64,000 bases of DNA. Origin: Myxococcota bacterium. GTDB lineage: Bacteria; Myxococcota_A; Bradymonadia; UBA7976; UBA1532. Positions 57,324 to 64,000 of the stretch are shown here, in pieces (positions within the stretch are counted from its first letter, which is position 1; every line of letters starts with the position of its first letter). The stretch is taken from positions 1 to 64,000 of the forward strand of contig JAYZEG010000095.1 of NCBI GenBank assembly GCA_036337435.1, written 5' to 3'. Made by a program: the position numbers and the translations under genes. Under the pieces are notes generated by a model. That model had not been told where the DNA came from, searched no databases, and saw only the letters and a program-made list of their open reading frames with translations.

Positions 57324-58304
57324 TTAAAGCGGTGTTTCCACCATGTTAACCACATCACGAATAATCCGCTCACTTTCATCGGTGCTGCCCAGGGCACCTG
57401 TGACCTGATTGCATTTGATCCGGTGTGCCAGAGTTGGGACTGCGAGTTGTTTGACATCATCAGGAATCACATAATCACGCCCTTGAACCAAAGCATACGC
57501 TCTGGCCGCTCGTTGAAATGCCACGGCAGCGCGGGTGCTGATGCCAAGTCGTAATTCGGGATGATGCCGAGTCGCGGTTACGAGCTTGACGATATAATGG
57601 CGCAGCGGGTCGCTCACCTTGACTTGGTCAACCAACTGGCAAGCGCTCAATACGAAAGTGTCATCGGACACGGGGCGCAAGTCTGTAATTTGGTCAGCCT
57701 GGCCGTCAGATTTGAGAATGGCGTATTCGGTTTCCGGGTCTGGGTACCCCACTTTCAATCGAAACATGAAGCGGTCCAACTGGCTCTCAGGCAGTGGGTA
57801 GGTTCCTTGAAAATCAGTCGGATTTTGAGTTGCAATCACCGTAAAGGGATTCGGCAACTCATGGGTTTCCCGATAAACCGAGACCGTTTTCTCGTTCATC
57901 GCTTCGAGTAAGCTTGACTGAGTTTTCGGTGTCGTCCGATTGATCTCATCGGCGAGAACGAGTTGCGCAAAAATTGGGCCTTGCTCAAAGGAGAAGGCCT
58001 CCGATGAACGGCGGTATACTTGCACGCCAACAATGTCGCTGGGTAGCAGGTCACTGGTAAATTGAATCCGGCTGAAACTCAGATTGAGAACCCGGGCTAA
58101 TGTTTTTGCCAACGTGGTTTTTCCCACCCCCGGTACGTCTTCGAGCAGTACATGCCCGCCAGCGAAGATAGCCGTCAGAATTTTTTTGATAACCGAGTCT
58201 TTTCCCTGAATGACTTGGCTAACCTGTGCCGAAATTTGTGTGATGTTAGCCTGGACTTCGGCGAATTTTTCGTGAGTTGGGTCTTTTTCTAGGTCGGATT
58301 TCAT
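57324..58304 (-). CDS. moxR: MoxR-family AAA+ ATPase
   Basis: HVLLEDVPGVGKT, RIQFTSDLLPSD, ADEINR, ATQNP and LPESQLDRF. Confidence 0.95.
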   Translation of the reverse strand: MKSDLEKDPTHEKFAEVQANITQISAQVSQVIQGKDSVIKKILTAIFAGGHVLLEDVPGVGKTTLAKTLARVLNLSFSRIQFTSDLLPSDIVGVQVYRRSSEAFSFEQGPIFAQLVLADEINRTTPKTQSSLLEAMNEKTVSVYRETHELPNPFTVIATQNPTDFQGTYPLPESQLDRFMFRLKVGYPDPETEYAILKSDGQADQITDLRPVSDDTFVLSACQLVDQVKVSDPLRHYIVKLVTATRHHPELRLGISTRAAVAFQRAARAYALVQGRDYVIPDDVKQLAVPTLAHRIKCNQVTGALGSTDESERIIRDVVNMVETPL

Positions 58305-58494
58305 ATCAATTTTCCGAGTGATATTGAGTCAAACGTTGTTTCGTTTGTAACCAAGTTTAAGCGTCTTTCGTCTGACCGATACAAACCAGAATGGCCGCGC
58401 CCCTACAAATAAAAATGACTAGGGGGCTTGATCCCGTGGCATTTAGTGTTAAGTCTTCAGGCGCGAAAAGCCAGCAATTTGATTGGAGCGACAA

Positions 58495-61095
58495 ATGACA
58501 GAGAGTTCTGCGGCCGCCACGAACGCACTTGTCATTGTGGAATCACCCACAAAGGCCAAGACCATCCGACGATACCTAGGCGATGGGTTTACCGTTGAAG
58601 CTTCCATGGGGCACGTCCGTGATTTACCGTCATCTGCAGCAGACTTGCCTGCCGCAGCGCGAGGCCAACCTTGGGCCCGCTTGGCTGTCGATGTCGCCAA
58701 CGGCTTTCAGCCACTGTACGTGGTACCAAGTGATAAGAAAAAAATCGTGTCCGAGCTCAGAAAAGCTCTCAAAGGCAAGGATGTTCTCTACCTCGCAACC
58801 GATGAAGACCGCGAAGGCGAAGCCATTGGCTGGCATCTTGTTCAGTTGCTTAAGCCCAAAGTTCCCACCCATCGACTCGTTTTCCATGAGATCACCAAAG
58901 ACGCCATCAAAAGAGCCATCGACACACCGCGTGAGCTCAACGAGCATGTTGTGCAAGCCCAGGAAGCACGCCGTGTCCTCGACCGACTGGTCGGTTATGA
59001 AATTTCACCACTTCTGTGGAAAAAAGTCGCACCGGGCTTGTCAGCAGGACGTGTCCAAAGCGTAGCGGTCCGTCTCCTGGTGCTCCGAGAACGTGAACGT
59101 CAGCGGTTCGTGACCAGCACGTGGTGGGATCTTCGAGCGAAGTTTGCCGCCGATAACAAGGTCTTTGATAGCAACCTGGTCGCGGTCAACGACCTTCCGA
59201 TCGCCACCGGTCGGTCCTTCGATGAGACGACAGGCGAACTGAAGACTGGTCTCAATGTGCGGTTGTTGGCAGAGTCCGACGCGCAAGCACTCAAGGCGCG
59301 CATCTTGAAGCAACCCTTCGCCGTGAGCGATATTGAGCGCAAAGTACAGGCGCGACGCCCGTATCCACCGTTTACAACGTCGACGCTACAGCAAGAGGCC
59401 AATCGGAAGCTTGGATTTGGTGCAAAACGAACGATGCAAGTTGCACAGCGCCTTTATGAAAATGGACATATCACGTACATGCGAACCGACTCCGTGAACT
59501 TGTCGGAAGAGGCGATTAGCGCCGTGAGAAGCATGGTGAGTCGCCGCTACGGTGATGAACTCCTTTCGCCAAAGCCAAGACGCTTCACGACCAAAGCGAA
59601 GGGAGCCCAAGAAGCGCATGAGGCTATCCGGCCGGCGGGTACATCGATGGCGACCTCGAAAGAGCTTCAGCTGGCCAGCGATGAGGGCAAGCTGTACGAC
59701 CTGATTTGGAAGCGCACTGTATCGACGCAAATGGCCGATGCGAAGATCGCATTGACCACCGCAAAAATCAGCGTGACTGACCCCGAAACCAAGCAGCAAT
59801 TGACGTTCAGGGCATCAGGCCGTGAGGTTGTCTTCCCGGGTTTCTTCAGAGCCTACGTTGAAGGGTCGGACGATCCAGATGCAGTGTTGGAAGATAAAGA
59901 CCAGCCACTGCCAACACTGACTGTCGGACAGGGGTTAGATTGCCGCGACCTCGATGCCCATGGGCATGAAACCCGTCCTCCGTCGCGATACTCTGTCGCA
60001 TCTCTTGTCAAGGCACTGGAGACCCAAGGGATCGGGCGTCCGAGCACCTACGCCAGTATCATTGAGACCATTCAAAAACGTGGATATGTTCGGGATGAAC
60101 GAAAGCAATTAATCCCCACGTTCACGGCGATTGCCGTCACCCAATTACTCGAGGAAACACTCGGCCAGGTCATTGATGTCGAATTCACAGCGTCAATGGA
60201 GGCGTGGCTTGATGAGGTAGCCATTGGCAAAGACGCGCAGGAGTATTTAGGGGCCTTCTACCATGAACAGCTGCTCAATTGCATTGAACAGGGCAAAGAG
60301 ATTGACCCGCGTTCTGTATGCACACTTCGAAATGAGCGGATACAGCCCTATCGAATTCGGGTTGGTAAGTTTGGCCCATTCATCGAGTACGATGTTGAGG
60401 GAGAAGAGAAGGCGCGCATTGTCAATCTACCTGATGACGCGGCCCCAGCCGATGTGAATTTGGAGTTCATCGAACAACTTCGAGCGGATGCTTTGAAGGC
60501 TGAGCAGCCCATCGGTATCGATCCCGAAACCGGACTCAATGTGTATGTTCGCAAAGGTCGCTTTGGGCCCTATGTGCAACTGGGTGAACAGGGCGAAGGC
60601 AAGGAAAAGCCGCGTCGAGCCAGTTTATTGCCCGGGCTGACACCTGCCGATATCGACCTGGAATTGGGTCTGAAGCTGCTTACGCTCCCGCGCGAGGTTG
60701 GGCGCCATCCCGATGATAACGAGCCCATTATGGCCAACGTCGGCCGATATGGACCCTACGTGCAACACTTGCGGACATTTGCGTCTGTCAAAGCGCCGGA
60801 GTCGATTCTCGAGATTGGCTTGGATAGGGCACTGGTGCTTTTAGCCGAACGGGCCAAACAGACCAAAAAAGCAGAGCCCCTGCGCACCCTAGGCGTCCAT
60901 CCCGATGATGAAACACCAGTTGTGGTGATGGATGGTCGATATGGACCTTACGTCAAACACAAACGAACCAATGCTACACTGCCCGACGGGGTTGGTATCG
61001 ATGCGGTGACCTTAGAACAGGCCCTTGAGCTTCTTGCCGCGAAGGCTAAAAAAGGCCGCTCAAAGGGCGGCCGTCGTCGCGCAAAAAAATCGTAG
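58495..61095 (+). CDS. topA: DNA topoisomerase I (type IA)
   Basis: IVESPTKAKTI, ATDEDREGE, SAGRVQS, ITYMRTDS, AHEAIRP and C-terminal GR(F/Y)GPY repeats. ATG 58495 follows GGAG. Confidence 0.98.
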   Translation: MTESSAAATNALVIVESPTKAKTIRRYLGDGFTVEASMGHVRDLPSSAADLPAAARGQPWARLAVDVANGFQPLYVVPSDKKKIVSELRKALKGKDVLYLATDEDREGEAIGWHLVQLLKPKVPTHRLVFHEITKDAIKRAIDTPRELNEHVVQAQEARRVLDRLVGYEISPLLWKKVAPGLSAGRVQSVAVRLLVLRERERQRFVTSTWWDLRAKFAADNKVFDSNLVAVNDLPIATGRSFDETTGELKTGLNVRLLAESDAQALKARILKQPFAVSDIERKVQARRPYPPFTTSTLQQEANRKLGFGAKRTMQVAQRLYENGHITYMRTDSVNLSEEAISAVRSMVSRRYGDELLSPKPRRFTTKAKGAQEAHEAIRPAGTSMATSKELQLASDEGKLYDLIWKRTVSTQMADAKIALTTAKISVTDPETKQQLTFRASGREVVFPGFFRAYVEGSDDPDAVLEDKDQPLPTLTVGQGLDCRDLDAHGHETRPPSRYSVASLVKALETQGIGRPSTYASIIETIQKRGYVRDERKQLIPTFTAIAVTQLLEETLGQVIDVEFTASMEAWLDEVAIGKDAQEYLGAFYHEQLLNCIEQGKEIDPRSVCTLRNERIQPYRIRVGKFGPFIEYDVEGEEKARIVNLPDDAAPADVNLEFIEQLRADALKAEQPIGIDPETGLNVYVRKGRFGPYVQLGEQGEGKEKPRRASLLPGLTPADIDLELGLKLLTLPREVGRHPDDNEPIMANVGRYGPYVQHLRTFASVKAPESILEIGLDRALVLLAERAKQTKKAEPLRTLGVHPDDETPVVVMDGRYGPYVKHKRTNATLPDGVGIDAVTLEQALELLAAKAKKGRSKGGRRRAKKS

Positions 61096-62766
61096 GCTCA
61101 CTGACTCCGAGGTCCCGCTCACTTGAACTCGGCTGTCTTGGAGCGGACAGAGAACGCTGAGCAGTCGAAAGGGCAGCGTGATGAAGTGGGACCCATCGTC
61201 ACTCTGCACGTCGTCTTGCCAATAAGTCCTGACAGAGGCCAGCGCGTCTTTGTCTACAGTTGGGCCCGATATGGTCAGACGAATTTCAGTTTCATCCGGT
61301 TCATCAATCACCTTGATCTGCACTGTTCCGCCCGTGAGACAGTCTCTGAGTACACCCATGCATAACGCGAGTGCTCTCGCGGTTTGCGTAGCGTCGATGG
61401 TGAGCCGATTTGCATCCGGGTCACCCGTTGCATCCTGGGTGTTAATCACGACGCTGATTCGACCGAGGGGATCGTCTCTATATTGCTCCTTAAGCATGCT
61501 GAGGACAGCATTGACAGAGCACGCTCTGATCCGTAGAGCAGCCACATCTGAATGAACGGCCAAATCCTTACGAGTTCCGTCCAATTTAGATAGGTCAAGA
61601 AGGGCCAGTATAAACCTGAGAAGCGTGTCGCCCCGATGCCAAATTTCAAGAATTTCTTTGCGTTGAGTTTCATTTATTGGGCCTTCAATTTCGTTCACCA
61701 ACAACTCAGAGAATCCTAGGATGCTGTTCAGGGGGCTTTTCAGTTCGTGGCTGATATGCGCTAAAAATCGGTTTTTTTGAGTCTCAGCTTCCCGGCGTTT
61801 TTTCGCTGCGCTTGCGATCTGGTTTTGCTGCCGTCTAAAGCCATCGGCCGCCCTCTCAAAATCAGAAAAGATCTCTGCACATTCTTTGAGACCTACGGAG
61901 GTTTTCCGAGCATCAACCGGGGCGGGCTGCTCCACTCTCGCCAAAGCTGCTGTGATGGCTTTCAAGTCAGTGGCGACATCGTCCGCGATGGCTCGGCATG
62001 TGCGGTATGAGAAGAAGAGAATGCCGAGCACCAACAAGAACGCTGTCGAGTCGAAAGATGACGACTCCAAACCGCTGACCAATGGCACGGACTGTTGAGG
62101 CATTTGGATTCGGACATTGGCAGCCAGTTCTTTTTCCGCGCGTCGCGCAACGGTTGCATGCATTGTCCTAAACGTTGTTTCTATCTCTTCGACACTGTTG
62201 GTGTCGCTCAAATGCTGAACGAGAACCATGCCGAGCCCACACATGACGACGGGCAGCTGTATCACAAAGACCATGCGCATTCGAATGGTCTGCCGCACCC
62301 CACCCAGTGTACGTGTTCCAGGTTGGCCCTGTGTCATGGGACGCAATAGTCGTCGGAGCCAAAGGTAGAGCAACAGATTGGGTAAGGTTGTGATGAGGTA
62401 GGTGAGGACACCCGTTGCGATTGCCTCACCAAGGTCTCTTGACCTCATGGATTGAAGCACGGTGATGAGAATTGCCGCGACCAAGGCACCAACGAAACAG
62501 AAACGCATCACGCTGAACGGATAAGAATACGCGGCGGCGCGGCTGGCATTGGAGTCTGCCCCTGACTCGAGACCCGTTTTTTGGGGAGTGGTCCAGACGA
62601 TGAGAAGTAGTGCCGCGAAAAAACCAAAGCCGCACAACGCAAATTGTGTTGTCGCGTCGAATTGGTCTCCTGGTACGACATAACCCAAAATCATGGAGGT
62701 CAGGGTGACGGAGACGGAGATCCAGGTGAAAATCCATAATCGCAATGTGGTCATGGACCGATTCAT
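61060..62766 (-). CDS. Membrane sensor histidine kinase-like protein with intact H-box and degenerate ATPase domain
   Basis: About 6 TM helices; FLAHISHELKSPLNSILGF; no N, G1 or G2 boxes in the C-terminal domain. Confidence 0.85.
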   Translation of the reverse strand: MNRSMTTLRLWIFTWISVSVTLTSMILGYVVPGDQFDATTQFALCGFGFFAALLLIVWTTPQKTGLESGADSNASRAAAYSYPFSVMRFCFVGALVAAILITVLQSMRSRDLGEAIATGVLTYLITTLPNLLLYLWLRRLLRPMTQGQPGTRTLGGVRQTIRMRMVFVIQLPVVMCGLGMVLVQHLSDTNSVEEIETTFRTMHATVARRAEKELAANVRIQMPQQSVPLVSGLESSSFDSTAFLLVLGILFFSYRTCRAIADDVATDLKAITAALARVEQPAPVDARKTSVGLKECAEIFSDFERAADGFRRQQNQIASAAKKRREAETQKNRFLAHISHELKSPLNSILGFSELLVNEIEGPINETQRKEILEIWHRGDTLLRFILALLDLSKLDGTRKDLAVHSDVAALRIRACSVNAVLSMLKEQYRDDPLGRISVVINTQDATGDPDANRLTIDATQTARALALCMGVLRDCLTGGTVQIKVIDEPDETEIRLTISGPTVDKDALASVRTYWQDDVQSDDGSHFITLPFRLLSVLCPLQDSRVQVSGTSESVSLRFFCATTAAL

Positions 62767-63998
62767 GCCGTGCCTCCCGAACCGGGTTCGAGCGGTAAAA
62801 GTAGATGAAAATTACTGCCTTCCCCCTCAACGGAGACGACCCATAATTTGCCATCGTGGCGATCCACTAAGCGCTTAGCAATTGCCAATCCTAACCCCGT
62901 GCCAGGTCGATCTCTTTGCTCGCTCACGCGATAGAATTCGTCGAAGATTGTTTCCTGTTCGGCCGAGGGGATACCCGGTCCGCTATCCCAAACCGAAACA
63001 TGGACGGCCGCACGCCCATCGTCGAAATGATCTCTAATGGTGGTGACTCGAACGTATCCGGAATCTGTATACTTGAAGGCATTTTCAATGAGGTTACTCA
63101 AGACTTGAGTAATTCGTTTTCGATCTGCATGGACCAATGGAACATCATCTGCCGCTGCGATTTCGGCCTTGATTGTTGGCTTTGCGCGGTCTGCCAAGCG
63201 GGTCATCACCTCTGTTGCTAATTCATTCATGTCAAAGGCATTGATATCCAATGGGATATCCTGCCAGTGATCGAGTTCCGATAGCATGAGAATGTCTCGG
63301 ACGTGATCGTTTAATTGTTCAGCCGCTTGGTCTATGACCGCCAAATCGTTTAGTTGATCTTGATTGAGGGTTTGAGCCGCGAGCTCCGTGCAGCTCTGCC
63401 GAATCGACCGGAGTGGTTCTTGTAATTCATCGCTTGCCGAGCGCAGAAAAATATTTTGAGCTTCATTGCTCTGAGCGGCCAAGTTTAATTCTCTGAGCAG
63501 GGCGCGTTGAACCGTTGTGTGGACCTGCATTCTATCGTTTAGATGCGTGGCGAGGTCGCCGGCCTCATCGTTTCCGGGTATCGGAATTCCACCCATGCTG
63601 CCTCCGTATCGCACGGGTGTGCCCGACGACGCCGGCACCGAGACATTACCTAGACGCTTAAGACCATCTGAGATCGACCGAAGTGTGTTGCGGATTTCAA
63701 GGGCTGCAAGCCAAGCCGCGAGCGGTGAGCCGAAGAGCAGGGCTATCAAAAACACCAGCGAGAATGCAAACTCTGGTGCTGTCGCCGGTGGTGACAGCGT
63801 GCCGGAGACGCCAAGCCAAAGAACCGCATCTTGATAGGGTCTTGTGACAATATGCCATCGACTCCCATCAGGGCTTAGTGCATAAAAGCCATAGGCGGTT
63901 GGCTCCATTCTATCGCTGGCACCGAGCCAACTCGGGACGTCGTTATTTTTGACCAGTTCGGGAAAGATGAATTCTGTTCGGCGCCAGATGGAGAGAAT
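62763..63998 (-). CDS. Membrane sensor histidine kinase-like protein (5'-truncated) with intact ATPase domain but no phospho-acceptor His
   Basis: Frame stays open from 63908 to the window end. TM and HAMP-like linker; H-box reads SASDELQEPL; NLIENAFKY, DSGPGI, IFDEF and GTGLGL are present. Confidence 0.88.
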   Translation of the reverse strand: MLSIWRRTEFIFPELVKNNDVPSWLGASDRMEPTAYGFYALSPDGSRWHIVTRPYQDAVLWLGVSGTLSPPATAPEFAFSLVFLIALLFGSPLAAWLAALEIRNTLRSISDGLKRLGNVSVPASSGTPVRYGGSMGGIPIPGNDEAGDLATHLNDRMQVHTTVQRALLRELNLAAQSNEAQNIFLRSASDELQEPLRSIRQSCTELAAQTLNQDQLNDLAVIDQAAEQLNDHVRDILMLSELDHWQDIPLDINAFDMNELATEVMTRLADRAKPTIKAEIAAADDVPLVHADRKRITQVLSNLIENAFKYTDSGYVRVTTIRDHFDDGRAAVHVSVWDSGPGIPSAEQETIFDEFYRVSEQRDRPGTGLGLAIAKRLVDRHDGKLWVVSVEGEGSNFHLLLPLEPGSGGTA

Positions 63999-64000
63999 CC

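Follow-up and report, generated by a model that had tools for sequence, protein, structure and literature searches.

Complementary defects in two overlapping, paralogous sensor kinase genes of a Bradymonadia family suggest kinases that work only together

Two sensor kinase genes lie next to each other at the end of a stretch of DNA from an uncultured bacterium of the class Bradymonadia (GTDB lineage Bacteria; Myxococcota_A; Bradymonadia; UBA7976; UBA1532). This stretch, called the window here, is 64,000 nucleotides long and represents positions 1-64000 of a 97,605-bp contig (JAYZEG010000095.1) in a genome assembly (GCA_036337435.1) of 4.38 Mb and 95 contigs, which is 87% complete with 1.5% contamination. 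The host, known only from metagenomes, apparently lives in marine plankton or sediment. Both open reading frames (ORFs) are on the minus strand, with the gene that we call HK-A upstream and the gene that we call HK-B downstream. As encoded here, HK-A lacks the histidine that serves as phospho-acceptor, and HK-B lacks the site that binds ATP. The comparisons presented below suggest that these complementary defects have been kept by selection across a bacterial family and that the two kinases work only together.

HK-B occupies positions 61060..62766 of the minus strand and encodes 568 aa. Based on the ORF, Pfam, hydropathy and family alignments, the protein consists of about five transmembrane (TM) helices, a linker, a HisKA-type domain for dimerisation and histidine phosphotransfer (DHp), and a C-terminal domain that resembles a catalytic and ATP-binding (CA) domain and is referred to as the pseudo-CA. 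The N-terminal membrane and sensor region (residues 1-260, 61987..62766) contains five hydrophobic segments and is homologous, by hhalign and from residue 16 on, to the same region of HK-A. The DHp domain (Pfam HisKA, residues 330-396, 61579..61779) carries the proposed phospho-acceptor, His340, in the H-box ISHELKSPL on its first helix; the codon, CAC, was read directly at 61747..61749, the position given for the His of SHELKSPL in a first-pass annotation made from the sequence alone. The pseudo-CA (residues 410-568, 61063..61539) is predicted to be a CA-like alpha/beta sandwich without the N, G1 or G2 residues.

HK-A, of which 62763..64000 (minus strand) falls in the window, encodes TM helices, then about 110 aa of sensor segment, a linker that is HAMP-like, a DHp domain without His and an intact CA domain. 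What the first-pass annotation read from the window is correct, but the gene itself crosses the window end, with an ATG at contig position 64652 that gives a protein of 629 aa; the longest ORF begins from a TTG at 64745. The ATG start agrees with the length and the N-terminus of the closest relative (P0112). At full length the N-terminus of HK-A is multi-TM like that of HK-B, with about five hydrophobic segments in each by hydropathy. In the ESM Atlas, it matched only generic clusters of the type 'TM, sensor, HAMP', which are leads at most. The HK-A DHp domain (Pfam HisKA, P0001 residues 399-462, 63267..63458) is degenerate as a phosphotransfer surface: the H-box reads SASDELQEPL, and the codon at the position of the phospho-acceptor His, read directly at 63429..63431, is GAT for Asp408. 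Downstream of it, the CA domain (Pfam HATPase_c, P0001 residues 510-622, 62787..63125) has intact N, G1, F and G2 boxes. Both observations had been made in the first pass and are confirmed here. The HK-A stop and the HK-B start share four bases, ATGA, at 62763..62766 (read on the minus strand as 62766-62763, in agreement with the earlier call), an arrangement of translational coupling.

The domain searches divided the two proteins in the same way. HK-A matched both HisKA (3e-07) and HATPase_c (PF02518, 1e-28), while the only Pfam match of HK-B was HisKA (PF00512, 4.3e-13), with no HATPase_c match even at E<=1. An active class I kinase has a phospho-acceptor His together with a HATPase_c domain bearing the N, G1, F and G2 boxes. 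HK-A has the second of these features and lacks the first (Asp408), and HK-B has the first (His340) and lacks the second.

The relationship between the two proteins had to be sought by profile comparison, because direct BLASTP of HK-A against HK-B shows almost nothing, namely a stretch of the DHp core at 23% identity with an E value far above significance. Comparison of the two families by hhalign gave an alignment of 536 columns that starts in the first TM helix and runs through to the C-terminus, with a probability of 99.1%, an E value of 1e-18 and 15% identity. By this comparison, HK-A and HK-B are ancient full-length tandem paralogues derived from one membrane sensor kinase. The same alignment allowed the ATP-binding motifs to be mapped from one protein to the other. 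The HK-A N box VLSNLIENAFKYT falls on ALALCMGVLRDCL of HK-B, the G1 motif DSGPG on GPTVD, and the G2 motif GTGLGL on FITLPF, so that HK-B has other residues in place of the Mg-binding Asn, the Asp of G1 and the glycines of G2, with the length of the domain retained. Since the ATP motifs of HK-A align to residues of HK-B that form no such motif, HK-B has the length of the domain and none of its ATP or Mg ligands, as the first-pass annotation had proposed from the same region. An AlphaFold2 model of HK-B built with 22 sequences (mean predicted local distance difference test score, pLDDT, 71.9) folded residues 410-568 with confidence into an alpha/beta sandwich, for which pLDDT by block was about 80-92. 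In a Foldseek search, about 250 columns of this model matched the DHp and CA cores of GacS, ZraS, RetS, HK853, WalK and DivL with a probability of 1.0. The C-terminus of HK-B is, according to the model, a CA-shaped pseudo-domain.

The defect of HK-B was found in every relative. A 5.8-billion-protein index contained 21 full-length relatives at 26-79% identity, all with HisKA as the sole precomputed Pfam domain, and a fresh scan of the 22 sequences found HisKA in 22/22 and HATPase_c in 0/22 at E<=0.01. His340 was invariant in 22/22, and again in 39/39 sequences of an enlarged alignment, in which the whole helix SHELKSPLN[ST]ILGF was identical throughout. An exhaustive profile search of 1.84 billion cluster representatives retrieved about two dozen full-length HK-B representatives and a few fragments at 320-703 bits, followed by a sharp gap; the next scores, at 207 bits or less, belonged to short fragments and then, from about 163 bits, to ordinary kinases and the HK-A family. 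Judged by these searches, the HK-B family is small.

For HK-A, the index held three full-length relatives, at 83, 52 and 45% identity, none of them with the His (D, Q and Q). Orthologues were recovered from 19 related loci to give an alignment of 23 sequences, in which the H-box column contained H in 15, Q in four, D in two, S in one and Y in one. The N, G1, F and G2 boxes were intact in all 23 sequences and likewise in 23/23 species genomes. Counted by species genome, HK-A lacked its His in seven of 23, which belong to three of 13 genera: the genus of the window, g1, in 4/4 genomes (D, D, Q and S), g8 in 2/2 (Y and Y), and g14 in 1/1 (Q). The His was present in the other 16, which represent ten genera. 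Thus, the reciprocal defect described in the first-pass annotation is real and complementary in this genus, but it is family-wide for HK-B only. With the His of HK-A present in 16/23 genomes, the pair was not an obligate reciprocal heterodimer at its origin.

The history of the His was traced on a quick maximum-likelihood tree, for which the sequences of HK-A and HK-B were concatenated and their H-box columns removed. The g1 sequences and g8 fell on one side, and the g14 sequence (L020_Q) was nested in a His-bearing clade as sister to g10, with an SH-aLRT support of 99. Forcing all His-less HK-A sequences into one clade cost 22.7 log-likelihood units, with a p value of 0.0497 in the approximately unbiased (AU) test, which is borderline and refers to a group named after the tree had been seen. 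The claim is therefore limited to this: on the quick tree, the His of HK-A appears to have changed at least twice, in three genera.

Within the g1 clade, the changes in HK-A reach beyond the His. In helix 1 after the lost residue, the Glu is gone in 3/6 sequences and the Thr at +4 (HELRT) in 6/6. The residues at +7, +8, +11 and +12, which we take to be the regulator-specificity positions, read RSQS, RQRT, EQTL, VDSE, TDDE and VEEN, and all four positions depart from the family norm.

Several variants of the HK-A DHp domain are recorded here as observations in their own right. One g1 sequence (L004:4118-5995, genome G108) has the H-box TASSHLQRPL, with Ser at the canonical site and His at +1, which may be a shifted acceptor or chance. 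The g8 sequences (L010 and L094/L096) have Tyr for His (ASYELRTPL) on an otherwise unaltered helix 1, and this may be the youngest of the His losses. In g10 (L013 and L014) and g11 (L005), the His is present (SHALK.PL, SHELHAPL), and consensus residues beside it and the usual helix-1 residues are gone; these may be intermediates toward His loss, and the quick tree pairs g10 with the His-less g14 as sister genera. Additionally, HK-A has a Cys421 (about 63390-63392), 13 residues past the His site, and a His450 on DHp helix 2 (about 63303-63305), each in at least 90% of the 23 sequences. HK-B has no counterparts of these two residues, for which redox control or an active-site contact are possible roles.

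The two genes are inherited together. HK-A was directly upstream of HK-B on the same strand in 19/19 public loci with an HK-B relative and in 23/23 genomes with HK-B, so that the adjacency noted in the first pass is conserved in orthologues. The junction overlapped in all 19 related loci, as ATGA in 13 and GTGA in six, and the HK-B frame began at the junction codon in 17 of them; the two exceptions, L017 and L019, seem to carry a frameshift or an assembly fault. In the genome that contains L017 (G095), HK-B was in addition found in two adjacent pieces (L103/L106) that cover profile positions 7-220 and 217-575 in different frames, which points to a frameshift or to an assembly error in this metagenome-assembled genome, and L019 is likewise frame-offset at the junction. 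Among 113 species genomes of the class, HK-B was present in 23, namely the genome of the window and 22/27 others of its family (23/28), and it was absent from 85/85 genomes of the eight other families of the class. The five genomes of the family without HK-B, one of which is 99% complete, had no full-length HK-A; the best match, at 225 bits, covered the common kinase core only.

Comparison of genomes G000 and G107 was used to examine selection within the genus. Amino-acid identity was 95% in the HK-A CA, 87% in the DHp domain of HK-A and likewise in that of HK-B, 83% in the HK-B sensor region and 63% in the HK-B pseudo-CA. Across these parts, the proportion of nonsynonymous differences (pN) was 0.05-0.23 against a proportion of synonymous differences (pS) of 0.64-0.74, with values of 0.049 and 0.74 for the HK-A CA and of 0.23 and 0.65 for the HK-B pseudo-CA. 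Every part is under purifying selection, which is strongest in the HK-A CA and weakest but real in the HK-B pseudo-CA. The first-pass annotation had asked whether both defects are conserved under such selection: pN is far below pS in both genes, the defect of HK-B is present in 22/22, and the His loss of HK-A is confined to 7/23 genomes. Since the HK-B defect is family-wide and the loss of the HK-A His is found in 3/13 genera, the dead CA of HK-B is ancestral and the loss of the HK-A His secondary and lineage-specific. The order of events that follows from these distributions is a duplication, then an early loss of ATP binding in HK-B, and later the loss of His in HK-A.

Sequences from RNA libraries also matched the pair. 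Contigs of 151-237 nt with at least 99% identity to window positions 61060-63998 were found in four marine or seawater runs from four studies, and one of them (62693-62929) bridges the HK-A/HK-B junction. Such contigs may be contaminating DNA, and they are therefore weak evidence of expression; stretches of the locus without contig cover are uninformative.

The genes around the pair are also largely kept in the family. Upstream, a family-conserved block on the same strand (contig 64639-69848, L002:4639-9848) encodes, in this order, a 240-aa zinc-ribbon/TM protein, a third kinase (HK-C), an AIRS protein that is ThiL-like and two membrane proteins of the CNNM/CBS (CorC) type, followed by HK-A. 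HK-C is an intact soluble kinase of 424 aa with HisKA and HATPase_c domains, whose gene is overlapped by that of the 240-aa zinc-ribbon/TM protein, and most of the 19 loci keep it upstream, at a distance of about 5 kb. The last CNNM gene and HK-A share 14 bases, at the end of the former and the start of the latter. On the other side, topA (58483-61095, plus strand) and HK-B overlap tail to tail by 36 bases (61060-61095), and a convergent topA downstream of HK-B was also seen in several related loci, sometimes 2-3 kb off. Beyond topA lies a gene for a MoxR-type AAA+ ATPase (window 57324-58304; AAA_3, E 1.9e-63), which is kept near the pair in most related loci. At +7, +8, +11 and +12, HK-B resembles most of the HK-A sequences that bear the His, but the residues are also near the general HisKA consensus and are of the same type in HK-C. 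For this reason, these positions do not count here as an argument for a regulator shared by HK-A and HK-B. The first-pass annotation had seen no response regulator in the window, and the sequence beyond position 64000 did not change this: of 25 matches to the receiver (REC) domain in the genome, none is on the 97.6-kb contig of the pair.

The mechanism that we propose would split the two halves of the autokinase reaction between paralogues. HK-A, which has no acceptor His in this genus, would supply the ATP-binding CA, and HK-B would supply the invariant His340 on a frozen DHp helix. The overlap of the genes would allow both proteins to be made together, and these may assemble through their homologous DHp and TM regions into a hetero-oligomer. 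The simplest form would be an A:B heterodimer with a single active site, because paralogues that derive from a homodimer often keep its interface. Full-length paralogues are the usual origin of heteromers, and the paralogy over the full length and the 4-base overlap of the genes speak, if only indirectly, for a putative DHp-DHp contact between HK-A and HK-B. In such a complex, the HK-A CA would phosphorylate HK-B His340 in trans, and phosphorylated HK-B would then act as donor to a response regulator whose gene lies elsewhere.

The argument for this mechanism starts from HK-A. Its CA is intact and the most constrained part, and its own His and transfer surface are gone; it would therefore need a substrate, and the obvious one is the HK-B His. 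The loss of the HK-A His with the ATP boxes kept, together with an invariant His in HK-B, is the pattern expected if the HK-A CA serves the HK-B His. The repeated loss of the HK-A His, at least twice, would also fit the idea that this residue was already dispensable, with HK-B already phosphorylated in trans. We favour trans-phosphorylation of HK-B His340 by the HK-A CA inside a hetero-oligomer, and give it slightly better than an even chance. The further proposal, that the pair is a natural and obligately asymmetric heterodimeric kinase with one active site, which arose by duplication and stepwise loss, first of the HK-B CA and then, at least twice, of the HK-A His, is put forward tentatively and with somewhat less than even confidence. 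The comparisons show that the defects are complementary and that the genes are under selection, whereas the obligate heterodimer, the physical association, the trans-phosphorylation, the transfer to a regulator and the integration of two inputs are steps that we infer from the sequences. The two-input AND gate of the first-pass annotation is speculation, and the homologous sensor regions of HK-A and HK-B could equally form one pseudo-symmetric sensor. Alternatives to the heterodimer are phosphorylation between two homodimers, or no phosphotransfer.

Several points weigh against the proposed mechanism. It is favoured on the basis of sequence comparison and predicted structure, and the genomes compared are related and do not represent independent samples. 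Synonymous divergence (dS) is saturated even within the genus, so that omega values are rough and only the observation that pN is far below pS is usable. The independence of the HK-A His losses is only marginally supported, by the quick tree and the borderline AU p of 0.0497. Additionally, a block of about 12 kb (HK-C, the ThiL-like protein, CNNM, CNNM, HK-A, HK-B, convergent topA and MoxR) is collinear across the family, and with the whole block collinear, the adjacency of HK-A and HK-B alone is weak evidence; the informative features are the 4-base overlap and the paralogy. The HK-A proteins that have the His, in 16/23 genomes, could signal alone, and the pair can exist without trans-phosphorylation. 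Examples from other bacteria point in the same direction. ChpT and Spo0B, which also combine a DHp with a pseudo-CA, take phosphate from receiver domains, not from a CA (PMC3433190). A mutant of ChrS that was evolved in the laboratory, and whose CA is frameshifted, acted with no need for its His (PMC9491836).

The alternative that fares best takes up the first of these examples. HK-B would be a ChpT/Spo0B-type phosphotransferase anchored in the membrane, or else a dedicated phosphatase, which as a homodimer would exchange phosphate with receivers fed by other kinases such as HK-C, and the His-less HK-A would be an ATP-binding pseudokinase that, like DivL, regulates by contact. In its cytoplasmic layout, with a conserved His on the DHp and, after it, a Bergerat-like domain devoid of ATP motifs, HK-B matches ChpT and Spo0B, and ChpT, which is built in this way, does not autophosphorylate (PMC3433190). 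In most of the 19 loci, intact HK-C lies upstream at about 5 kb; in g8, the His site of HK-A holds Tyr; and a DivL structure is among the Foldseek matches of the HK-B model. With the His of HK-A present in 16/23 genomes, HK-A could also be the kinase and HK-B the phosphatase of one regulator. However, ChpT and Spo0B are small and soluble, and HK-B, with five hydrophobic segments and 300 residues before its DHp, keeps a full multi-TM sensor region homologous to that of HK-A. If the role of HK-A were regulatory only, one would not expect it to retain its ATP boxes in 23/23, or its highest constraint (95% identity) in the CA, after losing the His, the Glu, the Thr and the helix-1 surface, and no receiver-domain gene is found on the 97.6-kb contig. 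We consider this explanation unlikely, while giving it real weight.

A second possibility is that this genus has given up phosphotransfer, and that both proteins serve there as scaffolds or sensors without catalysis, signalling by protein contacts alone. Neither HK-A nor HK-B alone has a complete autokinase site, and histidine kinases in pseudokinase form can act without their His (PMC9491836). Against this, the HK-B His and its 14 neighbours are invariant in 39/39 sequences, the HK-A ATP boxes are invariant in 23/23, and pN is lowest exactly where catalysis would need it, all of which makes a pair of scaffolds improbable. More doubtful still is an HK-A that remains an autonomous autokinase by means of another acceptor, either His450 on DHp helix 2 or the +1 His of L004 (SSHL). 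His450 is present in at least 90% of the 23 sequences and, as estimated from hairpin geometry, is about level with position 408, and the L004 His is only one residue past the canonical site; but the +1 His occurs in just 1/8 His-less sequences, and the helix-1 surface that faces a regulator has drifted in g1. His450 is not a replacement acceptor, because it is equally conserved in sequences where the canonical His is present, and we give this explanation very little credence. Recent decay of one or both genes into pseudogenes, a reading that the first-pass annotation had held open and that the lack in each protein of a residue or motif defining an active histidine kinase might suggest, is refuted, to near certainty, by frames that are open and full length, by the same defects in orthologues at 27-83% identity, with that of HK-B in 22/22 and as old as the family, by purifying selection (pN far below pS), and by the co-occurrence of the pair in 23/28 family genomes.

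Trans-phosphorylation of HK-B by HK-A therefore remains the reading that we carry into a comparison with known systems. In the textbook view, histidine kinases are homodimers, and there are few natural heteromers. Within open-access papers and preprints, a search that left subscription journals mostly outside, we found no natural pair made of one full-length sensor kinase without the His and one without the ATP site, and the phrase 'heterodimeric histidine kinase' was not found in open-access papers and preprints. Complexes among sensor kinases have been described for LovK, SkaH and SpdS (PMC6530869).

RetS and GacS of Pseudomonas aeruginosa, the heteromer that has been studied best, provide an example of two membrane kinases that pair through a DHp-DHp interface which mimics the homodimer interface, and the binding of RetS is inhibitory in that it blocks GacS autophosphorylation (PMC8498467). 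In the Foldseek search with the HK-B model, kinase-region chains of RetS ranked among the best matches. Unlike HK-A and HK-B, whose genes overlap and whose proposed heteromer would be productive, with each partner supplying the missing half, the genes of RetS and GacS are not adjacent paralogues.

In ChpT of Caulobacter and Spo0B of Bacillus, both dimeric, the phosphorylatable His belongs to a four-helix DHp bundle, and the C-terminal domain is Bergerat-like, with neither ATP binding nor autophosphorylation (PMC3433190). The cytoplasmic half of HK-B has this layout. The two phosphotransferases are soluble, sensorless and receiver-fed, whereas HK-B is a multi-TM sensor coupled to a paralogue with an orphan CA. 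DivL of Caulobacter has Tyr in place of His and acts by binding phosphorylated DivK and controlling CckA. It has been called a pseudokinase (PMC12471899). Like DivL, HK-A has its His replaced, by the same residue, Tyr, in g8, a likeness that extends to the common kinase core compared; DivL is not known to have a paired paralogue with a dead CA and a retained His.

The kinases ChrS and HrrS of Corynebacterium glutamicum are paralogues that form heterodimers in two-hybrid assays, and a variant of ChrS, frameshifted in its CA, goes on contributing to signalling, with its His not needed and no detectable heterodimerisation (PMC9491836). The likeness to HK-A and HK-B is one of paralogous kinases with one variant defective in the CA. 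The difference is that the ChrS pseudokinase was made in the laboratory, while natural ChrS and HrrS are both complete kinases.

Another parallel comes from Mycobacterium tuberculosis, in which HK1 and HK2 (Rv0600c/Rv0601c) are two kinase polypeptides that serve one regulator, TcrA (PMC3544749; PMC9321153). As with HK-A and HK-B, two kinase polypeptides take part in one system. Shrivastava and colleagues are said to have found in 2007 that HK1, which carries the ATP-binding part, phosphorylates HK2, which carries the His. That pair reportedly represents a split gene in which each piece is without the domain of the other and the regulator is adjacent, whereas HK-A and HK-B are full-length sensors, each with a degenerate copy of the part it has lost, and have no linked regulator.

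The combination of defects in HK-A and HK-B is otherwise known from the mixing of mutant subunits. In-vitro mixing of His-minus and ATP-site-minus subunits of EnvZ or NtrB restores phosphorylation, and such experiments established trans-phosphorylation. HK-A and HK-B would present the same combination of genotypes in natural form; those were engineered alleles of one gene, whereas these are two diverged genes (about 15% identity) conserved across a family. If HK-A phosphorylates HK-B, the pair would be a natural counterpart of the classical mixing experiments and a case of subfunctionalisation inside a single catalytic cycle, and two soluble domains would make a simple in-vitro system for studying asymmetry and the control of one kinase by two sensors. 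If the asymmetric heterodimer is true, the half-of-sites asymmetry that is transient in homodimeric kinases would be fixed in the genome, and two diverged sensor regions would control one phosphorylation event. The orthologous pairs with and without the HK-A His offer a ready comparison for whether trans-phosphorylation preceded the loss of His.

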